Positions 3,876 to 53,681 of a stretch of DNA of 64,000 bases are shown here, piece after piece. The stretch covers positions 5,536,001 to 5,600,000 of the forward strand of contig CM000152.2 of NCBI GenBank assembly GCA_000004695.1. Direction: 5' to 3'. The stretch comes from Dictyostelium discoideum (lineage: Eukaryota). Position 1 is the stretch's first letter; the number at the start of each line of letters is the position of its first letter. The notes below the pieces were generated by a model. The model did not search any database. It was given only the letters and a program-made list of their open reading frames with translations, and was not told the origin of the DNA. A program made the position numbers and the translations under genes.

Positions 3876-4110
3876 GAAAAAAAAAAAATAAAAAATAAAA
3901 AAAAATAAAAAATAAATTTGGGCTCACCCACAAAAGATCAGTATCTGATTGTTTTTTTTTTTTTTATAATATTGATTTTGAAAAATTCAAATTTCTAAAA
4001 ATTGGATAGATACCTTTTGATTAAACAAAATTTTTTAAATTAGAGATGTTTCAAATAAAACCAGTTTTTATGCTCCAAATTATTTTTTTTTTTTTTTTTT
4101 TTTTTTCTTC

Positions 4111-4149
<39 letters not shown>

Positions 4150-4642
4150 AGAAAATATAATACAATAATTTAAAAAAAAAAAATTAAAAAATAAAAAAAT
4201 TTATTTATTAGTTTTTTTAATTTTAATTTACAAATCTATTATCATATTTAAATATTTTTTTATAATCAAAATAAATCAAAATCAAAAAATATTTTAATTC
4301 TTAACCAAATTCAATAAAAAAAAAAACAATTATAATAATTGTCAAAAATCAAATCAAAAAATAAAAAAAAAAAAAAAATAATTAAAAAAAATAAAAAAAA
4401 ATAAATTTTTTATCGTCCATTTATCGTCTTTGGGATTGAAATAAAAACCCTTTGAAAAAAAAAAAAAAAAAAAAAAAAAGCAAAAATAAATTTGTCTGCA
4501 AAGATATACGAAAAAAAAAAAAAATAATAAAAAAAAAATTGGCACACTAAAATTAAAAATAACAGCAAAGATAAAAAAAAAAAAAAAAAAAAAAAAACAG
4601 CAAATATATAATTATATAAAACAATATAATAAAAAAAAAGAT

Positions 4643-6909
4643 ATGGAAATTGATAATTTATTTTTTTACTGTTGGAGAAATGTTTATATTAGAGGTTTAA
4701 TATTTAATTTTATTAAAACCAATAAAACAGAATTAATAAATCCAAATTTTGGTATTTACAATTATTATCAAATGAATGATGTAAATTTAATGGCAACAAA
4801 TAAAGGATTAAAGCAATTGTTAGTTGAAAAGGTTGAAAAAAAATATCATTTAAATTTTAATTTTTCAAAATCTGGAATTCCTTTTGAAAATATTTTTAAA
4901 AATTTTAAAAATGAAACTGATAAAGAATTTTTTAATAATCTATTCAAAAATTATCCAAATTATTTTTTATCTTCAATTGATATAACAGCAGAATATTCAA
5001 TGGCCTGTGATTGTGTTGTTGCATTCCAAGTTTTAGTAAATAATTTTAATTATACTCCAATTAATTGTAAACAATTATTTATTGATTCAATTTTAAAAGG
5101 TTCTATCGAAACTTCAAAATTAATAAATGAAAAGTTTAATCCAAAACTAAACCAAATTGATTATGATGAAATTTGGAAATTATTATTAAATAAGAATGTT
5201 GACCTTGTAATAGAAGAAACTATTCCAAATAATGACCCAATTGGTAAAATTAATAAATCAATTGAATATTTAGTAAAAGAATTAAATGCACCCTTACCAC
5301 CACCTATCGATAATAATTCATTTAAATGTTTTATTGATTTTTCAATTAAAAATAGAAATCTTGAATATATTTTATCAACTTGTTATTCAATTTCCTATTT
5401 AAAATCATCTTTGGAATTATTTATTTCTCCATTTCCAAATTTAACCAATTCATTTAAAATTTTAACAATTAAAGAATTGGATGAAATTAAAATGAAATTA
5501 ACTAGACAAGAATTAGAAAGTAATGTACAAGATATTGAAACTAATAATGAAATAATTTCAAAATTAGTTGGAATGGCTTCAAAATTTACAAGTATTAATT
5601 TTTATTTTAATATGGTATTTTATTATCAACATTATGAAAATAATTATATAACTTTAATGAAATTGAAAATCAAAATCAAAATTTATCATTATTTAATGAA
5701 ATTTTAATTGCACATGGTAATTATAAAGGAATAGTTGAAAATGTTGATTTAATGGAACTTGAACCACATCAAAAAGGTAAATCAATTATAATCACTGGTA
5801 AAGAATCATTTAAAATTTTTAGATCATGTAAAAATAATATTGAAAATGTTTTTAAAATAATGGTACAAGATATTATTGATAATTTCACATTTAGAACTAA
5901 ACCATTAACTGAGATTCATTCAGTTTTAGATATTATTAAATTTTTAGCTACTTTTGGTGATACAAAATTAGTTTTAGAATTATTTGCAGAAATTAATAAA
6001 AACTATGTAATAGTTTCAGGGTACCCAAATCAAGCATATTCTCTAGTAACTTCAACTGAAATGTTTGATATTATATTTTTTAAATTTAAAAATGCATTTA
6101 GATTAAATGAAATTTATGATCTTGTTGATTCAAATAATGATAGAACAAATACTTATTTAATTTTAGATCATTTTAAATCAAAATATCCAAATGAATATAA
6201 TAAAGTAGTAGCACATTATAATCCATTGCCAAATCATTTATTAAATGAATTTATTTTCAATAATTTAGAAGAACATAAACAAAAACTAATTGAAAGTGAA
6301 TGTTGGCTAAATAGAGTAAGAAATGGTGTTGTACCATTAGAACATTTTAAAAAACTTTTAGAAATCACTCCAGATGATCAAGAATATCATTGTTTTGAAA
6401 GTAGTGAAATTTTTAATTATGTTTTCAATCAACGTATGCATGATATTGAAAATGGTAGATTTCAATTAACTCAAAGATCAAATTTATTAAATTATTATGT
6501 TACTGGTAAATTAGAAACAACAATTTTAAATTATATTGAAAAACCAATAAATTTTCCAAATTTAAATAGTTGTATAGATTTATTAATTAAATTTAATGAT
6601 TTAATTTCATTGAAATTCATTTTTGATTATTTTAATTTACCAAATTGTTCAAATTATCAAATATTCTTTAAAAATCATTTAATATTGATATCAGAACAAA
6701 ATAATTTACAAGTTTTATCATTTATTTTTCAAAATTATCCAACATTACTAACTCAAGAAAATTTACAATTCTTATTTAATCATTGTTATCAAAAAACTGC
6801 CTCGATTGAAATAATTAATTATATTATTAAATCAATTAGATTTAAACCAAATTTATTAAATTTATATTCTATTCCGATTGTAAAAAATTATTTTAATTTT
6901 TCAAATTAA
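4643..6909 (+). CDS. Dictyostelium-specific Asn-rich family protein, paralog A. The reading frame is broken near 5640-5750 (ORFs 4643-5707 and 5752-6909), so it is a possible pseudogene or carries a frameshift.
   Basis: Both ORFs are collinear with the intact 788-aa paralog at 7803-10169 (MEIDNLFFYCWRNVYI vs ELFFYCWENVYI; NAPLPPPIDNNSFKCFIDFSIKNRNLEYILSTCYSISYLKSSLELF shared). The second ORF continues the homology (KGKSIIITGKESFKIFRSCK vs NGKSIYFLGFESYTLFRSCK) only after a +1 shift. TAA and TAG stops fall in the gap, and there is no GT..AG intron of plausible size. Confidence 0.5.
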
Positions 6910-7802: not shown

Positions 7803-10169
7803 ATGGAAATAAATAATGGTACATTAAAAAGGAATTCAGAATTATTTTTTTATTGTTGGGAAAATGTTTACATAAAAAAAGTAATTTTTGAAAATTTAAA
7901 AACAAATAAAACTTCAATAATAAACCTATTATATGGAATATATAATTATTTACAATTAAATGATGTTAATACAATTACAACAAATGAAAACTTACATATT
8001 TTATTAATAGATAAAATTAAAAAAACAAGAAATTTAAATTTTAATTTTCCAAAAACCAAGATTCCCTTTGAATTAATTTTCCAAAAGTTTAATTCAAATG
8101 AAACAATTGATTTTTATAAAGATTTATTTAAAAATTATCCAAAGTATTTCCTTTCTTCAATGGATGCAATTTGTGAATATGCAATCAAATGTAATAATAT
8201 AGTTGCAATTCAAGTTTTAATAAAACATTTTTCATTTGTCCCAAATAATAGTAAAGAAATTCTAATAAGTTCAATTTTAAATGGGTCATTCAAAGTTGCA
8301 AGTTTTTTAAAAGAATCTTTTAATATAAACCTTACCAATGAAGATTATAATAAAATATGGAATTATTTATTATACAATGAAAATGTGGAAGGCACAAAAC
8401 AAGAAGCCCATTCAATGTTTGAAGTAATAAAACATAATAAAAATATAAATTTTAATAAAATAAATGATTCAATTGAATATTTAGTAAAAGAATTAAATGC
8501 ACCATTACCATCACCTATTGGTAATAATTCATTTAAATGTTTCATTGATTTTTCAATTAAAAAAAGAAATCTTGAATTTATTTTATCAACTTGTTATTCA
8601 ATTTCATATTTAAAATCATCTTTGGAATTATTTATTTCACCCAATCCAAATTTAACGAATTCAATTAAAATTTTATCAATTAAAGAATTGGATGAAATTA
8701 AAATGAAATTAACTAGACAAGAATTAGAAAGTAATGTACAAGATATTGAAACTAATAATGAAATAATTTCAAAATTAGTTGGAATGGCTTCAAAATTTAC
8801 AAATATTAATTTTAATGTTAATATGAAGTTTTATTATCAACATTATTATTTTAATGAACCACCTAAACAATGGGGAGATTTTTTAACAAATATTTATAAC
8901 TATATTGAAATTTCAATATCACACGGAGATTATAAAGATTTGGTACTAAATATTAATAAACTACCAATTGATCCTACAATTAATGGTAAATCAATTTATT
9001 TTTTGGGTTTCGAATCATACACATTATTTAGATCATGTAAAAGTATAATGAACCAAAAATGTGAAATATTTATTCAAGATGTTGTTAATCATCAATTAGA
9101 TACAACAATTGCACCAGAATTAAAACATTCAATTATTGATGTTATAAAATTTTTTATTACTTTAGGAAATATTGAATTGATTCAACAACTTTTTATACAA
9201 CTAGATTATTTCAATATTCAAATTAATCCATCAAATTTAATATACTCTTTTATTAATTCAACTGAAATGTTTGATTTAATTTATCAAAGATTTAGAGAAA
9301 CATTCAATTTAAATGAAATTTTAGAAATTGTAAATATGTATAATAAGGTTGAAATTAAATATTTAATACTATACCATTTTAAAAACAACTATACCCAAGA
9401 TTATTATCAACAACTTGAAAATTATATACCATGTGTAAATAATTTATTAAATGAATTTATTTTTGAAAATATTCAAGATTTTCAAAATAAATTAATAGAA
9501 TCAAATTTTTGGTCAAATTCTTATGCAATTAAAACTATAAATACCAATCTCCCATTAAAACATTTTAAAAAATTATTAGAAATAACTCCTATTGATCATG
9601 AATATTATCATTGTTTTAATAATTTTGAAAATTTAAAATATGTAATAGATTTTAGAAAACAAGATATAATCAACAATCGTAGATTTTATATACAATTTGA
9701 AAATTCATCAATTTATAATATATATGCATGTGGAATGATGGAAGAAATTTTTGAGGAATGTTTAGAAAAACCAATTAATATCCCAATGGAAAATTTAAAT
9801 AATACATTTGATTTAATGATTAAATCAATTGATTTAAAATCAATTAAATTTATAATTGATTATTTTAATCTAACAAATAATAATACATTTATTCAAAACT
9901 TTAAGGGATGTTTAAATACAATCTCAAAGTTTAACCGAATTGAAGTTTTATCATTCATATACAATAACTATCCAACACTATTATCTCAAAATAATTTACA
10001 ATCATTATTTGAACATTGTTTACAAGTAACAGGTTCAATTGAAATAATTCAATTTTTAATTAAAGATATTAGATTTAAACCAAACCTTGAAAATATTGAT
10101 AAAAATATTAATTTTACAGATAAAACTTTTATAACTAAAAATTATTTTTTAAAATATTTAAATAAATAA
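7803..10169 (+). CDS. Dictyostelium-specific Asn-rich family protein, paralog B (788 aa, intact single exon)
   Basis: Long uninterrupted ORF. It is a tandem paralog of 4643-6909 and shares a ~126-nt block at 100 percent identity with it. No domain recognised. Confidence 0.65.
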   Translation: MEINNGTLKRNSELFFYCWENVYIKKVIFENLKTNKTSIINLLYGIYNYLQLNDVNTITTNENLHILLIDKIKKTRNLNFNFPKTKIPFELIFQKFNSNETIDFYKDLFKNYPKYFLSSMDAICEYAIKCNNIVAIQVLIKHFSFVPNNSKEILISSILNGSFKVASFLKESFNINLTNEDYNKIWNYLLYNENVEGTKQEAHSMFEVIKHNKNINFNKINDSIEYLVKELNAPLPSPIGNNSFKCFIDFSIKKRNLEFILSTCYSISYLKSSLELFISPNPNLTNSIKILSIKELDEIKMKLTRQELESNVQDIETNNEIISKLVGMASKFTNINFNVNMKFYYQHYYFNEPPKQWGDFLTNIYNYIEISISHGDYKDLVLNINKLPIDPTINGKSIYFLGFESYTLFRSCKSIMNQKCEIFIQDVVNHQLDTTIAPELKHSIIDVIKFFITLGNIELIQQLFIQLDYFNIQINPSNLIYSFINSTEMFDLIYQRFRETFNLNEILEIVNMYNKVEIKYLILYHFKNNYTQDYYQQLENYIPCVNNLLNEFIFENIQDFQNKLIESNFWSNSYAIKTINTNLPLKHFKKLLEITPIDHEYYHCFNNFENLKYVIDFRKQDIINNRRFYIQFENSSIYNIYACGMMEEIFEECLEKPINIPMENLNNTFDLMIKSIDLKSIKFIIDYFNLTNNNTFIQNFKGCLNTISKFNRIEVLSFIYNNYPTLLSQNNLQSLFEHCLQVTGSIEIIQFLIKDIRFKPNLENIDKNINFTDKTFITKNYFLKYLNK

Positions 10170-14410: not shown

Positions 14411-14444
<34 letters not shown>

Positions 14445-20335: not shown

Positions 20336-22732
20336 TTAATAATCATATTTATTTTCCCAAGATATATAGGATTTTTCAGTATAAAGTTGTTTAATACGTT
20401 GAGATCTTTTTGATTCAAATTGAATTTGTTCGATAATTTCTTTATTCTTTTTCTCTAATTGACTAACAATGAAATCATATTTTGGTTTAATATTGAATAA
20501 AAGCTTTCTTTCACGAATACCTCTATTATCCAAATACTTGATGAGGTCATCCAACTCCTTCTTACTAGAGTAGTATTCCCAACCACCATTTTCATTTTCA
20601 ACATAAATTTTACTTGGCAATTGATACCAATACCAATAGTTTCTATAGTTTCTATCTCTTCCAAGTGATTCTAAACGTGTGGAATATTTCTCCAACTTTT
20701 CATCTAAAATCTCTAATTTCTTTTCTAGCTTTTCGATTTCTTTTTCTACGACAGGAGTAATTGGTTTCTTTTGTTTAGCACCCTTTGGTTTTTTAACTTC
20801 TTGTTGTTGTTGTTCTTCATCATCTTCATTATTTTCATCATCATCCTCAGCAGCAGCGGCAGCATCATCTTGTTTTAATTGTTTTTCCTCTAAGATGATA
20901 CCTTTTTTCTCTTGTTTAACTTCATTACCCAATTCAACATTCTTTTCCAAATGTTTACGAATCTTTTCAGATGCGATAGTTTGTTTAACTAAATAAGCGA
21001 GAATGTAAATTCTTTCTTCAACAGAGAGTTTAAAATAATTCTTTTTCTTTAAAACTTTACAAATTGTATTTGCATCTGCAGATGTAATAATTTCATTTTC
21101 TTCTTTCCATTCTTCTTCACCTTCATCAGATGCAACTTCTTCTTCTTCTTCTTCCTCTTCTTCCTCCTCTTCTTCATTCTCTTCATCATCTTTTTTAGTA
21201 TCTTTAGTTCCATCATTATCTTTCATTTCAACATCTTTTTTAATTTCATTACCATCTTCATCTAATTTCATTTCATCGTCTTCATCATCAGAACCTGGTA
21301 ATTCATTTGCTAAATTTAACATTCTAATATTTTGTTCTTCCAATTGTTTTAATTTCTCTTGTTTCTCTTTTTCTTCGATTGCAATTCTTTTAACTTCATT
21401 TTGAAAGTATGCTCTGAGTGTTGCTAACCAATTACGATCGGTAATGGCTTTGCCACCAAAGGTTTTCTTTGGTGTTCCACTTGAATATGATGGTAAAGTG
21501 AAGATGGTTTTCATTAAACGAATATGAGATTCCACCAAGATATTGGTTTCTGTATGATGTTGAATTGCCATTTCAAAATCGTCCAATGGGAAAGGTGATA
21601 AGAGTAGCACCTTTTCAAAATGATTAAGAAAATGCCAGACCATTAAAAAGTCACCAAAAGTATTTGATAAACAAAAGAAATCTGAAGATGCAATTGGACG
21701 TTCATTTTCTTTACCTGTTTCTTCATTCTCTCGATCAACATCTTGATCCTCAATTGGATATTTTGGCCTCTTTCTCTTTCTTTCAGTTTCTGATTCATCA
21801 CTACTATCTAAATTATTATTACTATTACTATTACCATTACTATTACTGTTATCATTACTCTCAATATCTACACTTTCCTCTTCAGTATCTTCAAGTATTT
21901 CTCCATCTGCAATTCTTTTTCTTTTTAAATGTTGTTCAACCTCTTTCCTTACAGATGATGGTATTTTCAAACCCTCTAAATTATACTTTTTAATTAATTC
22001 TGGTTCAACCTCCCAAAAACCACCAAGATGTTTTGTTTTTTTTGCTACAGTTTTAATGGTATCTTTTACCATTGGTTTAAAGATTGGTGGTTCTCTCTTT
22101 TGGATATCTTTAATATTGATAATAAAGTTTTTACCTTGAGAATCAACATAAATTTTATAATATTTTTTAATTGAATCTAATTTCTTTCTTGGATCAACAT
22201 ATTTTCTAACTGATTTAGTATCACTATCTTTTTCTTTTTCTTTTTCTTTCTCTTTTTCTTTTTCTTTTTCTTTTTCTTTTTCTTTTTCTTTTTCTTTTTC
22301 TTTTTCTTTTTCTTTTTCTTTTTCTTTTTCACCTTTTTTATCAGAAGAGGTGTCACCATTGTTTTTTTCATCCTCTTCTTCATTTTCATCATCACTATAC
22401 AATTGTAATTTAATTTCTTTCTTTGGTATTGGTATTGCTGATAATGCATTGATTGAACTTGATGTTGTGGTGGTTGTTGTTGGTGGTGTAGTTGGTGTTG
22501 TTGTTGTTGTTGTTGTTGAAGAAGATGATGATGATTTCTTTTGTTGTTCATTATCTGATTGTTCATCAGATTCATTATAGTTTTCCAATAATTCTATGAT
22601 TCTTCCAGTATATTTAACATTTGCTTTTTTAAAAGATACAATTTCACCTGGATAATAATTCATCAATAAAAATTCATATAATTGATTTGTCATTTCTTCA
22701 AGTGTAATTTCCTCTATATTTTATTAAATTTT

Positions 22733-25438: not shown

Positions 25439-27916
25439 ATGCCAAATAATGAAAATGAAGATTCAATTGTTTTATTACCATTAGATAGATATACAGTTGG
25501 AATTGACGAGTTTATTGGATTTAATGAATTTTATGATGATTATAAAAATAATAATTTTAATGAAAAAGATTCAATAATAAATGAATTATGTTATATGTCA
25601 ATTCAATTAATGGAAAAGTTATCATTAAAATTAGGAGATTGGATATTTATTGATGTTCAAAAACAACAACAAAAACAACAAAAACAACAACAACAACAAC
25701 AACAAAATAAACAATGTATTATATCAAAAGTTTGGACTTCAAGATATATTCAACAAAATTATTATATTCAATCAAATTCAAAACTAATATTAAACCAACA
25801 AATAAATGATGAAGAACAAGAACAAGAACAAGAACAAGAACAAGAACAACAAGAACAAGAACAAAATAAAAAACAAAACAAATCAATAAAATATCCAAGT
25901 TTTGTCAAAATTTATAAAGTTAATGAATTTGAAAATAATTTAAATAATGTTGATATTGAAATTATAGTTTCAAATAATAATAATAATAATAATAATGAAA
26001 ATATAAGAACATTATTTAGTAGTAAACAATTTATAAAGCAATTATTAATAAATAAATTAATATGTAGTGGAATGAATATATCACTTTATAATAATAATGT
26101 TAATTTAATTATAAAAAATGTAAATAATAATAATAATTTAAAAATTGGTTTAATTAGTCAATCAACAAAAATAAATATAATAATAATAACAAATGAAAGT
26201 TTATCATGTTTATACTCTTCAAATTCATCAAATTTATTAAATTTAAATTATAAAAATAAATTATTTAAAAAATTTAAATTAAATAATAATAATAATTTTA
26301 AAATTGGTGGATTAAATGAACAAATTAAATTATTGGAAGAAATGATGATTTATCCAATTTTATTTCCACAAGTTTTTAAAACTTTAAATATTGATCCACC
26401 AAAAGGAATTTTATTAAAGGGTCCACCAGGTACTGGTAAAACTCATTTAGTTAGGACTGTTTGTGATGCATATGATATTGAGATGATATCAATTGATTGT
26501 GCAAAAATCTCTGGTTCCTATATCGGTGAAACTGAAGAGAATTTAAGAAACATTTTTCAAGAAGCATCAGATAAATCAATTGCAAAATCAAATTCACCAA
26601 TTGTTGTATTCATTGATGAAATCGATACTATTTGTCCACCAAGATCTAAATCCACTCAAAACGAGTCACGTGTTGTTGGCCAATTCTTGACGTTACTAGA
26701 TGGTATTGGTGCTCGTAAAGGTAATTTAATTATAATAGCAGCTACGAATAGACCAAATCAAATCGATAATGCACTTAGAAGACCTGGTCGTTTAGATAGA
26801 GAAATTGAGATACCAGTACCAAACAAACAACAACGTTTAGACATTCTAAAATTATATTGTTCAAAATTACCAATCTCACCAACTCCTTCCAATTTATTAG
26901 ATCAAATAGCTGATGAAACCGTTGGTTATGTTGGTGCAAATATTCAATTCCTTTGTAGAGATTCTGCATTTATTGCATTTTCAAAATATAATTTATTAAA
27001 GTATCAAAATAATGAACAAAATGAAAATGAAAATGAAAAAAAATACCTTATTGAAATTGAAGATTTTAGAGAATCAATTAAAAATAATCCAGCATCAATT
27101 TTAAAAGGTGAACATTTAGTTGAGAATATTAGTAATGTAAGTTGGGATGATATAGGTGGTTTGGATGATATAAAAGAAGAATTGAGACAAGCTATAGAAT
27201 GGCCAAATCTTTACAAGGAGTCATTTGAAAAGTTTGGATTATCACCACCAAAAGGTATCATTTTGTATGGTCCACCAGGTTGTTCAAAAACTACACTGGT
27301 CAAAGCAGTGGCATCAAGTTCGAAATTATCATTTCTATCACTAAGTGGTGCAACTATTTTTTCACCTTATTTAGGTGACTCTGAACAAACAATTAGGGAT
27401 ATTTTTAAAAAGGCCAGACAAACAACTCCATCAATACTATTTTTCGATGAAATTGATGCAATTGTTTCAAAAAGAAATCTTTCAGATAATTCTAGTGGTG
27501 ATAATGCACAGTCAAGAGTGTTGTCAACATTTTTAAATGAAATGGATGGTGTTGAACAATTGAATGGTGTAATTGTAATTGGTGCAACCAATAGATTAGA
27601 TATGATCGATAATGCATTACTCAGACCTGGAAGATTCGATAAAATATTGGAAATCAAATTACCAGATCAATTATCAAGATTAAAAATTTTAAAAATTAAA
27701 ACAAAATCAATACCACTCTCAGATAATGTTAATTTAATTGAAATCTCAAATTTAACAAATGGTTTCAGTGGTGCTGATCTTGAAAATCTGTGTAGAGAAG
27801 CTTCATTTCAATCTTTAAGAAGAGATTTATTAAATGGTTTTGTTGAAATGTATGATTTTTTAAATTGTTTATCAAAAATTAATAATCAATCAAAAAATTT
27901 AGAAAATAAAATCTAA
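25439..27916 (+). CDS. Tandem-AAA ATPase, SPATA5L1/AFG2B-like (825 aa, single exon)
   Basis: D1 has [15 protein letters not shown] ... SGSYIGETEENLRNIFQEA ... SRVVGQFLTLLDG ... IIIAATNRPNQIDNALRRPGRLDREIEI. D2 has GIILYGPPGCSKTTLVKAVASSSKLSFLSLSGATIFSPYLGDSEQTIRDIFKKARQTTPSILFFDEID ... VIVIGATNRLDMIDNALLRPGRFDKILEI ... SGADLENLCREA. Both align closely with human SPATA5L1 (SVSGADLFSPFVGDSE; GETEENVRRVFQ; SRVVAQVLTLLDG). The N-terminal 300 aa are Asn/Gln-rich low complexity. Confidence 0.7.
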   Translation: MPNNENEDSIVLLPLDRYTVGIDEFIGFNEFYDDYKNNNFNEKDSIINELCYMSIQLMEKLSLKLGDWIFIDVQKQQQKQQKQQQQQQQNKQCIISKVWTSRYIQQNYYIQSNSKLILNQQINDEEQEQEQEQEQEQQEQEQNKKQNKSIKYPSFVKIYKVNEFENNLNNVDIEIIVSNNNNNNNNENIRTLFSSKQFIKQLLINKLICSGMNISLYNNNVNLIIKNVNNNNNLKIGLISQSTKINIIIITNESLSCLYSSNSSNLLNLNYKNKLFKKFKLNNNNNFKIGGLNEQIKLLEEMMIYPILFPQVFKTLNIDPPKGILLKGPPGTGKTHLVRTVCDAYDIEMISIDCAKISGSYIGETEENLRNIFQEASDKSIAKSNSPIVVFIDEIDTICPPRSKSTQNESRVVGQFLTLLDGIGARKGNLIIIAATNRPNQIDNALRRPGRLDREIEIPVPNKQQRLDILKLYCSKLPISPTPSNLLDQIADETVGYVGANIQFLCRDSAFIAFSKYNLLKYQNNEQNENENEKKYLIEIEDFRESIKNNPASILKGEHLVENISNVSWDDIGGLDDIKEELRQAIEWPNLYKESFEKFGLSPPKGIILYGPPGCSKTTLVKAVASSSKLSFLSLSGATIFSPYLGDSEQTIRDIFKKARQTTPSILFFDEIDAIVSKRNLSDNSSGDNAQSRVLSTFLNEMDGVEQLNGVIVIGATNRLDMIDNALLRPGRFDKILEIKLPDQLSRLKILKIKTKSIPLSDNVNLIEISNLTNGFSGADLENLCREASFQSLRRDLLNGFVEMYDFLNCLSKINNQSKNLENKI

Positions 27917-37844: not shown

Positions 37845-37952
37845 CATTTAAATTGAATTTTTATTAATTTTTTTTTTTTCTCACATCACCTCCAACAAAT
37901 AACAACCAACTTTAATTTTTCAATTTTTTTTTTTTATTATTTTTATTTTTAA

Positions 37953-50894: not shown

Positions 50895-53680
50895 ATGAAT
50901 TACGAAATTGTTATGGACGAGCATCAAAGTTTGTATTAAAAAAAAAAAAAAAAACTAAAAATAATTAAATTTTTATATGTAAATATTAATATAAAAAATT
51001 CAACAGAATTCATTGATGAAAATTTAAAGAATTTCTATGGAGAGCATAAACATTTTGTAGAATGGATGGATTCAAGATCATTAGCATCAAAAAGATTTAA
51101 AAAAAGATTAATTGTTATTGGTGAATATAGAATTTTAAGTGTAAAAAAAGGAAAAGTTTCAATATCTTTAAATAAAAATATTCATTTTTATGATATAGCT
51201 GATATAATAGTCGTTGAAGATACTGTATGTATTTTTTTTTTTTCTCAAAAATATTATTATTTAAAATACTAACATATAATTATTTATTAATTTTCAAAAA
51301 AAAAAAAGATTGAAATTAGACAAAAACAAGTTATAAAAGGTGATCAAATTGGTATATTAATAAAATCAAAACAAAAAGAAAGTTTACAAATGATATTAAA
51401 ATTGTTAAGAGAAAAGATTAGAAATATTACACATGGATTTCCAAGTACTAGTCAATTGAGAATTAATGCAAATGAGAGTTATTTATTACCAATTCAAGAG
51501 AAAGTTATTGGAATAGCTGATAATTTCATAGAGACTTATAAAGCACAATCATCCTACAAAAATAATGAACCAAGTACAGAGGTGATTAGATTGGTTGAAA
51601 AGTATGTTCAAGATTGTTGTAGAGAATTTGATTTATCAAAATGTCCAGGATTTGAAGGTAAAAGTGAATTAAATTTTCAAATTGATACTGTAATTTCATC
51701 ATTAAATTATAATGGTTATTTCAATTCAATTATTATTAATGGTAATAGTTGTGGTGGTAGTACTAATATTGGTGGCAGTGGTGGTGGCAGTGGTGGTGGT
51801 AATAGTAGTATAGGAGTTAATCAAAAAGGTTTAGTTGAAAAAGTTGGTGAATTATTATCAACAAATTGTTGTGTTAGAAAAATATCAATTTTTAATTGTA
51901 AAGATGATGATCAAGTATTATCAACCATTGGTACATCGTTAATTGGTAATCAATTTAATTTATTACAAGTTATAGATTTACATAGTAACCATTTAAATCA
52001 ATCAACATTTCAAACATTTGCAGATGGTATTGAAACAATGACACATCATTCACTTAGATATTTAAATCTATCAGATTGCAACCTATCATCAAGATCAGTT
52101 GAAATATTATTTAATTCATTCTGTAAGAATAGTAAAATCTCTACATCATTAGAGTATTTAAATTTATCATACTCAAAATTCGACGAGGTTGGTAGTAGTT
52201 CATTCACAAGTTGGTTAGCAAAGATCAAAGATGATAATGTATTAAAGTTTTTATATTTAACCAATTGTAATTTAAATTTAATTGTGATTGGAGCACAACT
52301 TAGAAATTTACCTTTGCTACGTGTATTGGATATTTCTAATAATAGATTAGAGAGAACTGAAATTGAAGAGTTAATTGCATTCATAAAGAATTCAAGGGCA
52401 TTGGAATCATTGAATATTTCAAATTGTTCACTTAATCATGACTATTTCCTCTACATTTGTAATACACTAAATAAGAATGAATATATTAAACATTTAGATT
52501 TAAATGTATCACATAATCAAATTTCAAAGTCGCCAAGTATCTTTGTTAGCGCATTGGAGTTTCTTACTATGGTGAATTCGTTAAATTTATCTCATATTCC
52601 CATTACTTATAAAACTTTGATTAGAGTTGTTGATTCAATTAGAATCTATTGTAAAAATATTAGAGAATTGATATTGGATGCTTGTTTCTCCCATTCAAAT
52701 GATAAATCTCATGATGGTATTGATTTCATTAATGAGTTGAAACAATTCCTTAGAGAGAGAGAATCATTGAAATCTTTATCTATAGGTGGTGACAATTCAA
52801 ACTACTTATCACCAAAATTGGTTATACCATTAATTGAATATTTAACCAACGAAAATGGTACATTGGAGCAATTGAATATTCAACACTCCCATCTTGGTGA
52901 TTCAGTTATGCCCTATATTGCTAATTTATTAGAACGTAATTCAACTTTGAAATCTTTATCATTGGATAGAAATTATTTCACTATTAATTCCTTCCAAACT
53001 CTATTGCTATCATTACAAAATAATCATACACTTTTAAATATACCTTTCCCATCATATGATTTTGAAAAAATTTTAATTACATTACCAACAGCTCAAAAGA
53101 AATCATTATTATTTAATTTACTTTATAGAATTCAATCAATTTTAGAAGAAAATGGTGGTTGGAGAATACCTGATCCTCATTTTTATCCTGTACCAACTTC
53201 ATTAACTACTGGTAATAATACTAGTGGTGGTTCAAATTTACAATTATTAGGTGGTGGTAGTGGTGGTAGTGGTAGTAATAGTGGTGGTTCTAATTTACAA
53301 TTACAACAACGTCCATCTTCACCAACTAGTAGTTCAAGTGGTAGTGGTTATAGAAGTAAAAGCCCAACACCTGTAACAACTTCATATGGTTCTTCTGCAT
53401 ATTCACAACAACATTATGATAATTTATCATTACCACCTCCACCTGTTGATAATTATTATAACAATAACTATTATCAAAATGAAAGTGAAGGTGGTGATGA
53501 TGATTATTATAATCATCAACAACAATCATCCCAACAAAAATATCAAAATAGAGCAACATTAAGTCCAACAAATAGAAATCAACAACAACAACAATACCAA
53601 AATAGAAATCAAAGAATTGAATTAACTGATAGTTTTGTTGAAGCTGTTGATCATTTAAATGATGAAGAAAATCTTGATTG

Positions 53681-53681
<1 letters not shown>
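50895..53681 (+). CDS. CARMIL-like leucine-rich-repeat protein (PH-like N-terminus + LRR cap + ~15 LRRs + Pro/Gly/Ser-rich tail). Three exons: 50895-50928, 51007-51224, 51309-53681.
   Basis: The N-terminus (FKKRLIVIGEYRILSVKKGKVSISLNKNIHFYDIADIIVVEDTV | IEIRQKQVIKGDQIGILIKSKQKESLQMILKLLREKIRNITHGFPS) resembles the non-canonical PH domain of CARMIL (VLVLTSCRAFLVT...LELTFSYLEIHGVV). It is followed by many LxxLxLSxNxL repeats (LQVIDLHSNHLNQ, LRYLNLSDCNLSS, LEYLNLSYSKFDE, LRVLDISNNRLERTEIEEL, LESLNISNCSLNH, LKSLSLDRNYFT...). The C-terminus has GGGSGGSGS and PPPPVDNYY tracts. The family call is an inference. Confidence 0.45.

Follow-up and report, generated by a model that had tools for sequence, protein, structure and literature searches.

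Paralogs A and B and the reading frame of A

The window analyzed here is a stretch of 64,000 nt from the AX4 reference assembly of Dictyostelium discoideum (GCA_000004695.1, contig CM000152.2, positions 5,536,001 to 5,600,000, forward strand). It contains two related genes, paralog A (DDB_G0282225) and paralog B (DDB_G0282227). When B was compared by tblastn with the whole window, A and B were the only copies found, arranged in tandem and both on the + strand. Comparisons were made with GCA_054883475.1 (locus tags ACTFIT, hereafter ACTFIT), an independent Nanopore plus Illumina assembly that carries the A gene on a chromosome of 6.43 Mb, and with the syntenic locus L001 of a divergent D. discoideum strain. 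The features of the locus are as follows.

4643..5707, + strand: paralog A (DDB_G0282225), upstream open frame, 354 codons, taken as true coding sequence up to 5650
5644..6909, + strand: paralog A, downstream frame, open from 5644, first ATG at 5752, stop at 6909
5245..5635, + strand: A-side arm of the A/B conversion tract, 391 nt, 93.9% identical to B
5592..5734, + strand: "intron" of the public AX4 model, 143 nt (GTATTAAT...GGAATAG), judged spurious
5636..5650, + strand: insert of 15 nt present in A but not in B, GAAAATAATTATATA (ENNYI); forms the heterology boundary on the 3' side of the tract
5650..5651, + strand: one T missing between these two positions; the window reads AATTATATA-ACTTT, ACTFIT and ACTFIR read AATTATATATACTTT
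7803..10169, + strand: paralog B (DDB_G0282227), intact single-exon gene of 788 codons
8456..8846, + strand: B-side arm of the tract, matching A 5245-5635

The coding sequence of A is split between two frames. As the first-pass annotation had described, both frames and a TAA at 5641-5643 are present in the window, and the break lies at the edge of the conversion tract, just 3' of the stretch of high A/B identity. Frame 0 reads ...YYQHYENNYITLMKLKIKIKIYHYLMKF and ends at a TAA stop at 5705-5707; its codons past 5650 (T LMKLKIKIKIYHYLMKF) are out-of-frame read-through. The other frame is preceded by the TAA at 5641-5643, is open from 5644 and reads LYNFNEIENQNQNLSLFNEILIAHGNYKG...; in every relative, the corresponding sequence simply continues one and the same ORF. 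The change of frame had been recorded as +1. The downstream frame is actually -1/+2 relative to the upstream one, which is the signature of a 1-nt deletion. About 15 codons of B had also been reported as missing from A. With the T restored, A is colinear with B and no codon is missing, so that the "15 missing codons" are an alignment illusion produced by the frameshift. Compared with B, the repaired A has the 5-codon insert ENNYI (5636-5650), then the shared YFNE, and then a stretch that is 4 codons shorter, which gives net lengths of 34 and 33 residues, respectively.

A homology search with the frame-corrected A protein returned only A-type and B-type proteins, all of them from group-4 Dictyostelium, and by this search the A/B family appears restricted to that group. 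Eight intact A-type orthologues of 754-764 aa were found, each a single uninterrupted protein. They derive from two further D. discoideum strains, two "cf. discoideum" isolates, D. citrinum, D. dimigraforme and D. firmibasis. Across the position of the break these proteins read ...YYQHYENNYI(Y/F/H/N)F(N/D/E)E..IENQNQNLSLFNEILIAHGNYKG.... The two half-ORFs of A (354 aa and 385 aa) had zero exact matches among ~15 billion proteins from assemblies including Logan; this look-up carries no information on AX4 reads, as the intact A and B proteins, too, were found there only from NCBI assemblies. A Pfam scan of A and B gave nothing above threshold. Residues 120-178 of B showed a sub-threshold match to Ank_2 (ankyrin repeat; E = 5e-4, 21 bits, cut-off 27.3). 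A search of the literature on DDB_G0282225 found no papers naming the gene.

The B protein is identical in AX4 and ACTFIT. Its orthologues elsewhere (L001 9304-11493; P0010, P0016, P0011) are annotated ~58 residues shorter at the N-terminus, with lengths of 729-733 aa in other strains compared to 788 aa in AX4 and ACTFIT. This contrast reflects either the choice of start codon or a 5' region that differs among annotations or strains.

The conversion tract between A and B

Within the tract, A and B align over 391 nt without a gap and with 24 mismatches, and an identical run of 126 nt extends from 5466 to 5591. Both edges of the tract are indels: a 24-nt B-specific insert lies just 5' and the 15-nt A-specific insert just 3'. 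These edge indels plausibly stop the extension of heteroduplex. The tract was found at the same place and with the same edges in all six genomes, corresponding to five species. Inside it, A and B group by species, while outside they group by paralogue. Informative sites inside the tract comprised 41 concerted sites (varying between species and identical within a species) and a single paralogue-diagnostic site, compared to 11 concerted and 123 paralogue-diagnostic sites outside. In D. firmibasis the two tract arms are 95% identical, compared to 80-84% for A-to-A comparisons between species, and in D. dimigraforme they are 93% identical. Outside the tract, A/B identity is 60-64%. Judged from these alignments, the conversion tract is real, recurrent in five species and so ancient that it and its edge are older than the species, and it is unrelated to the frame break. 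Grouping by species inside the tract and by paralogue outside is also known from the concerted evolution of tandem paralogues such as the globin genes. The present tract, in contrast, measures only 391 nt, lies within the coding sequence and is bounded by indels. For the frame break, it is context and not cause.

The missing T and the comparison with an independent assembly

At the break the window reads TATATA-AC, while the other genomes have TATATATAC; the T-less form can be written TATATAAC or AATTATATAACTTT. The codon at this position is TAC (Tyr) in ACTFIT and ACTFIR and TAT, TTC, CAT or AAT in other species. The missing T is the base immediately after the A-specific insert, 15 nt beyond the last base of the tract. 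It lies outside any long homopolymer, the commonest site of consensus errors, which counts against an error of the reference. Addition of one T at position 5650 of the window in silico resulted in an ORF of 755 aa, and by exact look-up the repaired protein was KAM9950515.1 / ACTFIT_011772, residue for residue. The lesion is the only one in A. The rest of its coding sequence is identical to that of the ACTFIT gene, and no further decay in the form of added stops, frameshifts or relaxed constraint was found beyond the single missing T. A DNA alignment of the window with the L001 locus, which diverges from it by 3-4%, contained ~70 substitutions, one in-frame indel of 15 nt and exactly one single-base gap, the missing T.

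ACTFIT has the T and carries A as an annotated single exon of 755 aa. Its identity to the window is 99.59% over 16.9 kb and 99.77% over the adjoining 22.5 kb. Within these ~39 kb, no indel other than the T lies outside repeats or breaks a coding frame; the others change the length of long A or T runs or that of a microsatellite, by one TCTTTT unit. Assemblies carrying such locus-tag prefixes were reported by Holland et al. 2025 from Nanopore plus Illumina data, and their D. discoideum set consists of AX2-214, the only lab-lineage strain, and two deliberately divergent tropical isolates (PMC12745789). From the near-identity to the window, the lack of private substitutions described below and this strain list, we infer that GCA_054883475.1 is AX2-214, a strain of the DdB/NC4 lab lineage. 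Ax2 and AX4 share common descent from DdB/NC4 (PMC4374526). The divergence of L001 fits a tropical isolate, just as the near-identity of ACTFIT fits AX2-214.

The polarity of the discrepancies was determined with L001 as the outgroup strain, for the first 17 kb only. At all substitution differences in this region (12/12) L001 carries the ACTFIT base. ACTFIT is thus without private substitutions, and all tested discrepancies are private to the window. Under symmetric divergence, such one-sidedness has a probability of about 2^-12. Most of the window-private changes are transversions (10/12), and in all 12 the window base copies a neighboring base. Nine cluster in 380 nt of low-complexity intergenic DNA (3965-4346) upstream of A. 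This region looks like a low-quality stretch of the reference.

Several further differences were seen along the window. In a large gene upstream, position 638 of the window has a private T (Phe, TTT), and ACTFIT and three outgroups carry A (Ile, ATT) instead; the reference is probably in error here as well, with an effect on a protein sequence. At 22250, within an ORF on the minus strand (20336-22693), a coding microsatellite is shorter in the window than in ACTFIT by one TCTTTT unit; this in-frame difference of 6 nt may be a real polymorphism or a difference between the assemblies. Long A/T homopolymers of the window are 1-11 nt longer than those of ACTFIT at 776, 3497, 3839, 4122, 4575, 7525, 12623 and 12781, and also at 14418, 14684, 19267, 22745, 33979, 36460 and 37820. 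This bias is nearly one-sided, with one exception at 37867, and probably reflects a platform-specific error in one of the two assemblies. For the 825-codon ORF at 25439-27916, the exact product is on record for ACTFIT only and not for AX4, meaning that the AX4 gene model differs, e.g. in its start or by extra introns. The exact product of the ORF at 51390-53681 was not on record in the look-up.

Origin of the frame break

Taken together, these comparisons favor a single-base omission in the AX4 reference assembly, combined with an artefact of the gene model, as the origin of the frame break in A (probability roughly 85%). Of the options listed by the first-pass annotation, it is thus the assembly or sequencing indel that the evidence supports. 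The single-nucleotide correction restoring an ORF of about 750 aa, which that annotation had set against its own proposal, was indeed found at the assembly level (ACTFIT, 755 aa). A recent pseudogene, also listed there, is less favored with the lesion being absent from ACTFIT and no other decay present. We consider the discrepancy to be most likely a reference error rather than a mutation of the AX4 clone.

A real intron would also restore the frame. Ten frame-joining, stop-free GT..AG pairs exist in the window, contrary to the earlier statement that no intron-sized pair is available, and one of them, GT5592..AG5734, is the intron of the public AX4 model. Translation of the window with this 143-nt intron yields 707 aa, identical to DDB_G0282225 / UniProt Q54SU0, and the AT content of the segment (85%) is slightly higher than that of the flanking exons (80%). 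Nevertheless, it is highly improbable that this intron, or one of 137 nt, is real and that a spliced AX4 mRNA encodes the 707-aa protein. In six related genomes the coding sequence runs through the segment without interruption (47-50 codons), with many third-position changes and with indels only in multiples of three, and its dN/dS of 0.08-0.48, compared to 0.15-0.32 for the rest of the gene, indicates purifying selection. The donor GT is absent in five of these six genomes: AX4 and ACTFIT alone have AGT as this codon, and the remaining five have AAT, a distribution indicating that the donor was created by an AAT>AGT change in the AX lineage. ACTFIT, with an identical GT donor and AG acceptor, is annotated as one exon. 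Furthermore, the donor GTATTAAT agrees poorly with the GTAAGT-type consensus, and the neighboring PH/FHA gene, whose real intron is 82 nt long with 89% AT (GTAAACTA..TTTTTTTTAG), contains dozens of frame-compatible GT..AG pairs by chance. On the basis of dN/dS, in-frame indels and the non-conserved donor, the annotated intron was rejected.

The most serious competitor of the reference error, though unlikely, is that one base pair was truly lost only very recently, either in the AX3/AX4 laboratory lineage or in the AX4 clone that was sequenced. DDB_G0282225 would then be a new pseudogene confined to AX4, with a truncated product of 354 aa. The lesion is present in both the window and the public AX4 model, its absence from every other genome would make it lineage-specific and recent if real, and one lesion with no other decay is compatible with a recent origin. 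In addition, AX3 is mutagenesis-derived, its ancestry including treatment with nitrosoguanidine. This agent gives mainly G:C>A:T transitions and seldom single-base deletions, and as the source of the window-private changes it was rejected, with only 2/12 being G:C>A:T transitions. The number of discrepancies also argues against true mutations. D. discoideum mutates at 2.9e-11 per site per generation (PMC3466296), and at this rate well under one true difference should have accumulated across 17-39 kb since the split from DdB. About 20 discrepancies were nevertheless observed, and those tested in the 17 kb are all private to the reference, with a non-mutagen, artefact-like spectrum. Of the 1917 candidate differences from the reference that the same study recorded in AX4 lines, 1916 recurred in more than one line; its authors put these down to errors in the reference, to differences between stocks or to mutations that arose early (PMC3466296). 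A more specific form of real mutation, namely a genuine AX4 change on the laboratory timescale at the heterology edge of the converting tract, is very unlikely; it could have arisen, for instance, if a heteroduplex loop at the 15-nt insert underwent error-prone repair. If true, it would be a case of conversion-associated frameshift mutagenesis caught in the act, and DDB_G0282225 would be a pseudogene specific to the reference strain.

The least probable explanations, to which we give almost no weight, are an imprecise conversion or deletion at the tract edge, programmed -1 ribosomal frameshifting, and two half-genes. The missing T does lie exactly where A/B homology resumes after the A-specific insert, and the first-pass annotation had seen in this coincidence a sign of imprecise conversion or deletion. 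Such an event is at odds with several observations: no codons were lost, and the tract with its 3' edge is common to five species and hence long predates the lesion. Moreover, the window and ACTFIT do not differ at any base of the tract, either in A or in B, and this includes the A-type markers at 5592-5617 next to its edge, so that no conversion event separates the T-bearing from the T-less sequence. Programmed frameshifting and half-genes were rejected, as every relative has a single ORF, with neither a need for frameshifting nor a split gene, and by inspection no canonical X XXY YYZ slippery site was seen in 5644-5707.

Under the favored reading, that of a reference error, the real gene would be one uninterrupted exon of 755 codons. 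Loss of the T of TATATATAC at 5650/5651 in the reference assembly would have shifted the frame, and automated annotation would have bridged the shift with the nearest frame-compatible GT..AG pair (5592-5734), resulting in the 707-aa model DDB_G0282225, which is short of 48 conserved residues. Why the base was lost at this place is a matter of speculation. Consensus building may have failed at the point where the reads of A and B cease to match, the site being the edge of the 15-nt A-specific insert beside the 126-nt identical run. Alternatively, the position of the lesion near the tract edge might be due to chance, unless it is a by-product of assembling reads from two paralogues.

The case resembles Sanger-era consensus errors that were bridged by artificial short introns: one base is missing from a coding sequence, the intron that restores the frame removes conserved codons, and the ORF is uninterrupted in all orthologues as well as in a second, independently made assembly of the lineage. 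It differs from them in lacking a long homopolymer; instead, the base is missing at the edge of a tract in which the paralogues are identical, and this setting may have contributed. Strain-specific unitary pseudogenes of laboratory strains likewise show a single disabling lesion in the sequence of one strain. Here, in contrast, a near-identical sister assembly is without the lesion, and the pattern of discrepancies points to a sequence error.

The reference gene model DDB_G0282225 (Q54SU0, 707 aa) is therefore probably wrong and should be a single-exon gene of 755 aa, with the T put back behind the base of chr3 that corresponds to window position 5650. Users of the AX4 model in knockouts, proteomics or orthology analyses inherit a hole of 48 residues. 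More generally, a frame-joining GT..AG pair in DNA with 80% AT is no evidence of an intron, and the AX2-214 assembly in combination with outgroup polarity can flag reference errors. For the A/B family itself, the 391-nt tract represents a clean, small case of concerted evolution limited by flanking indels.
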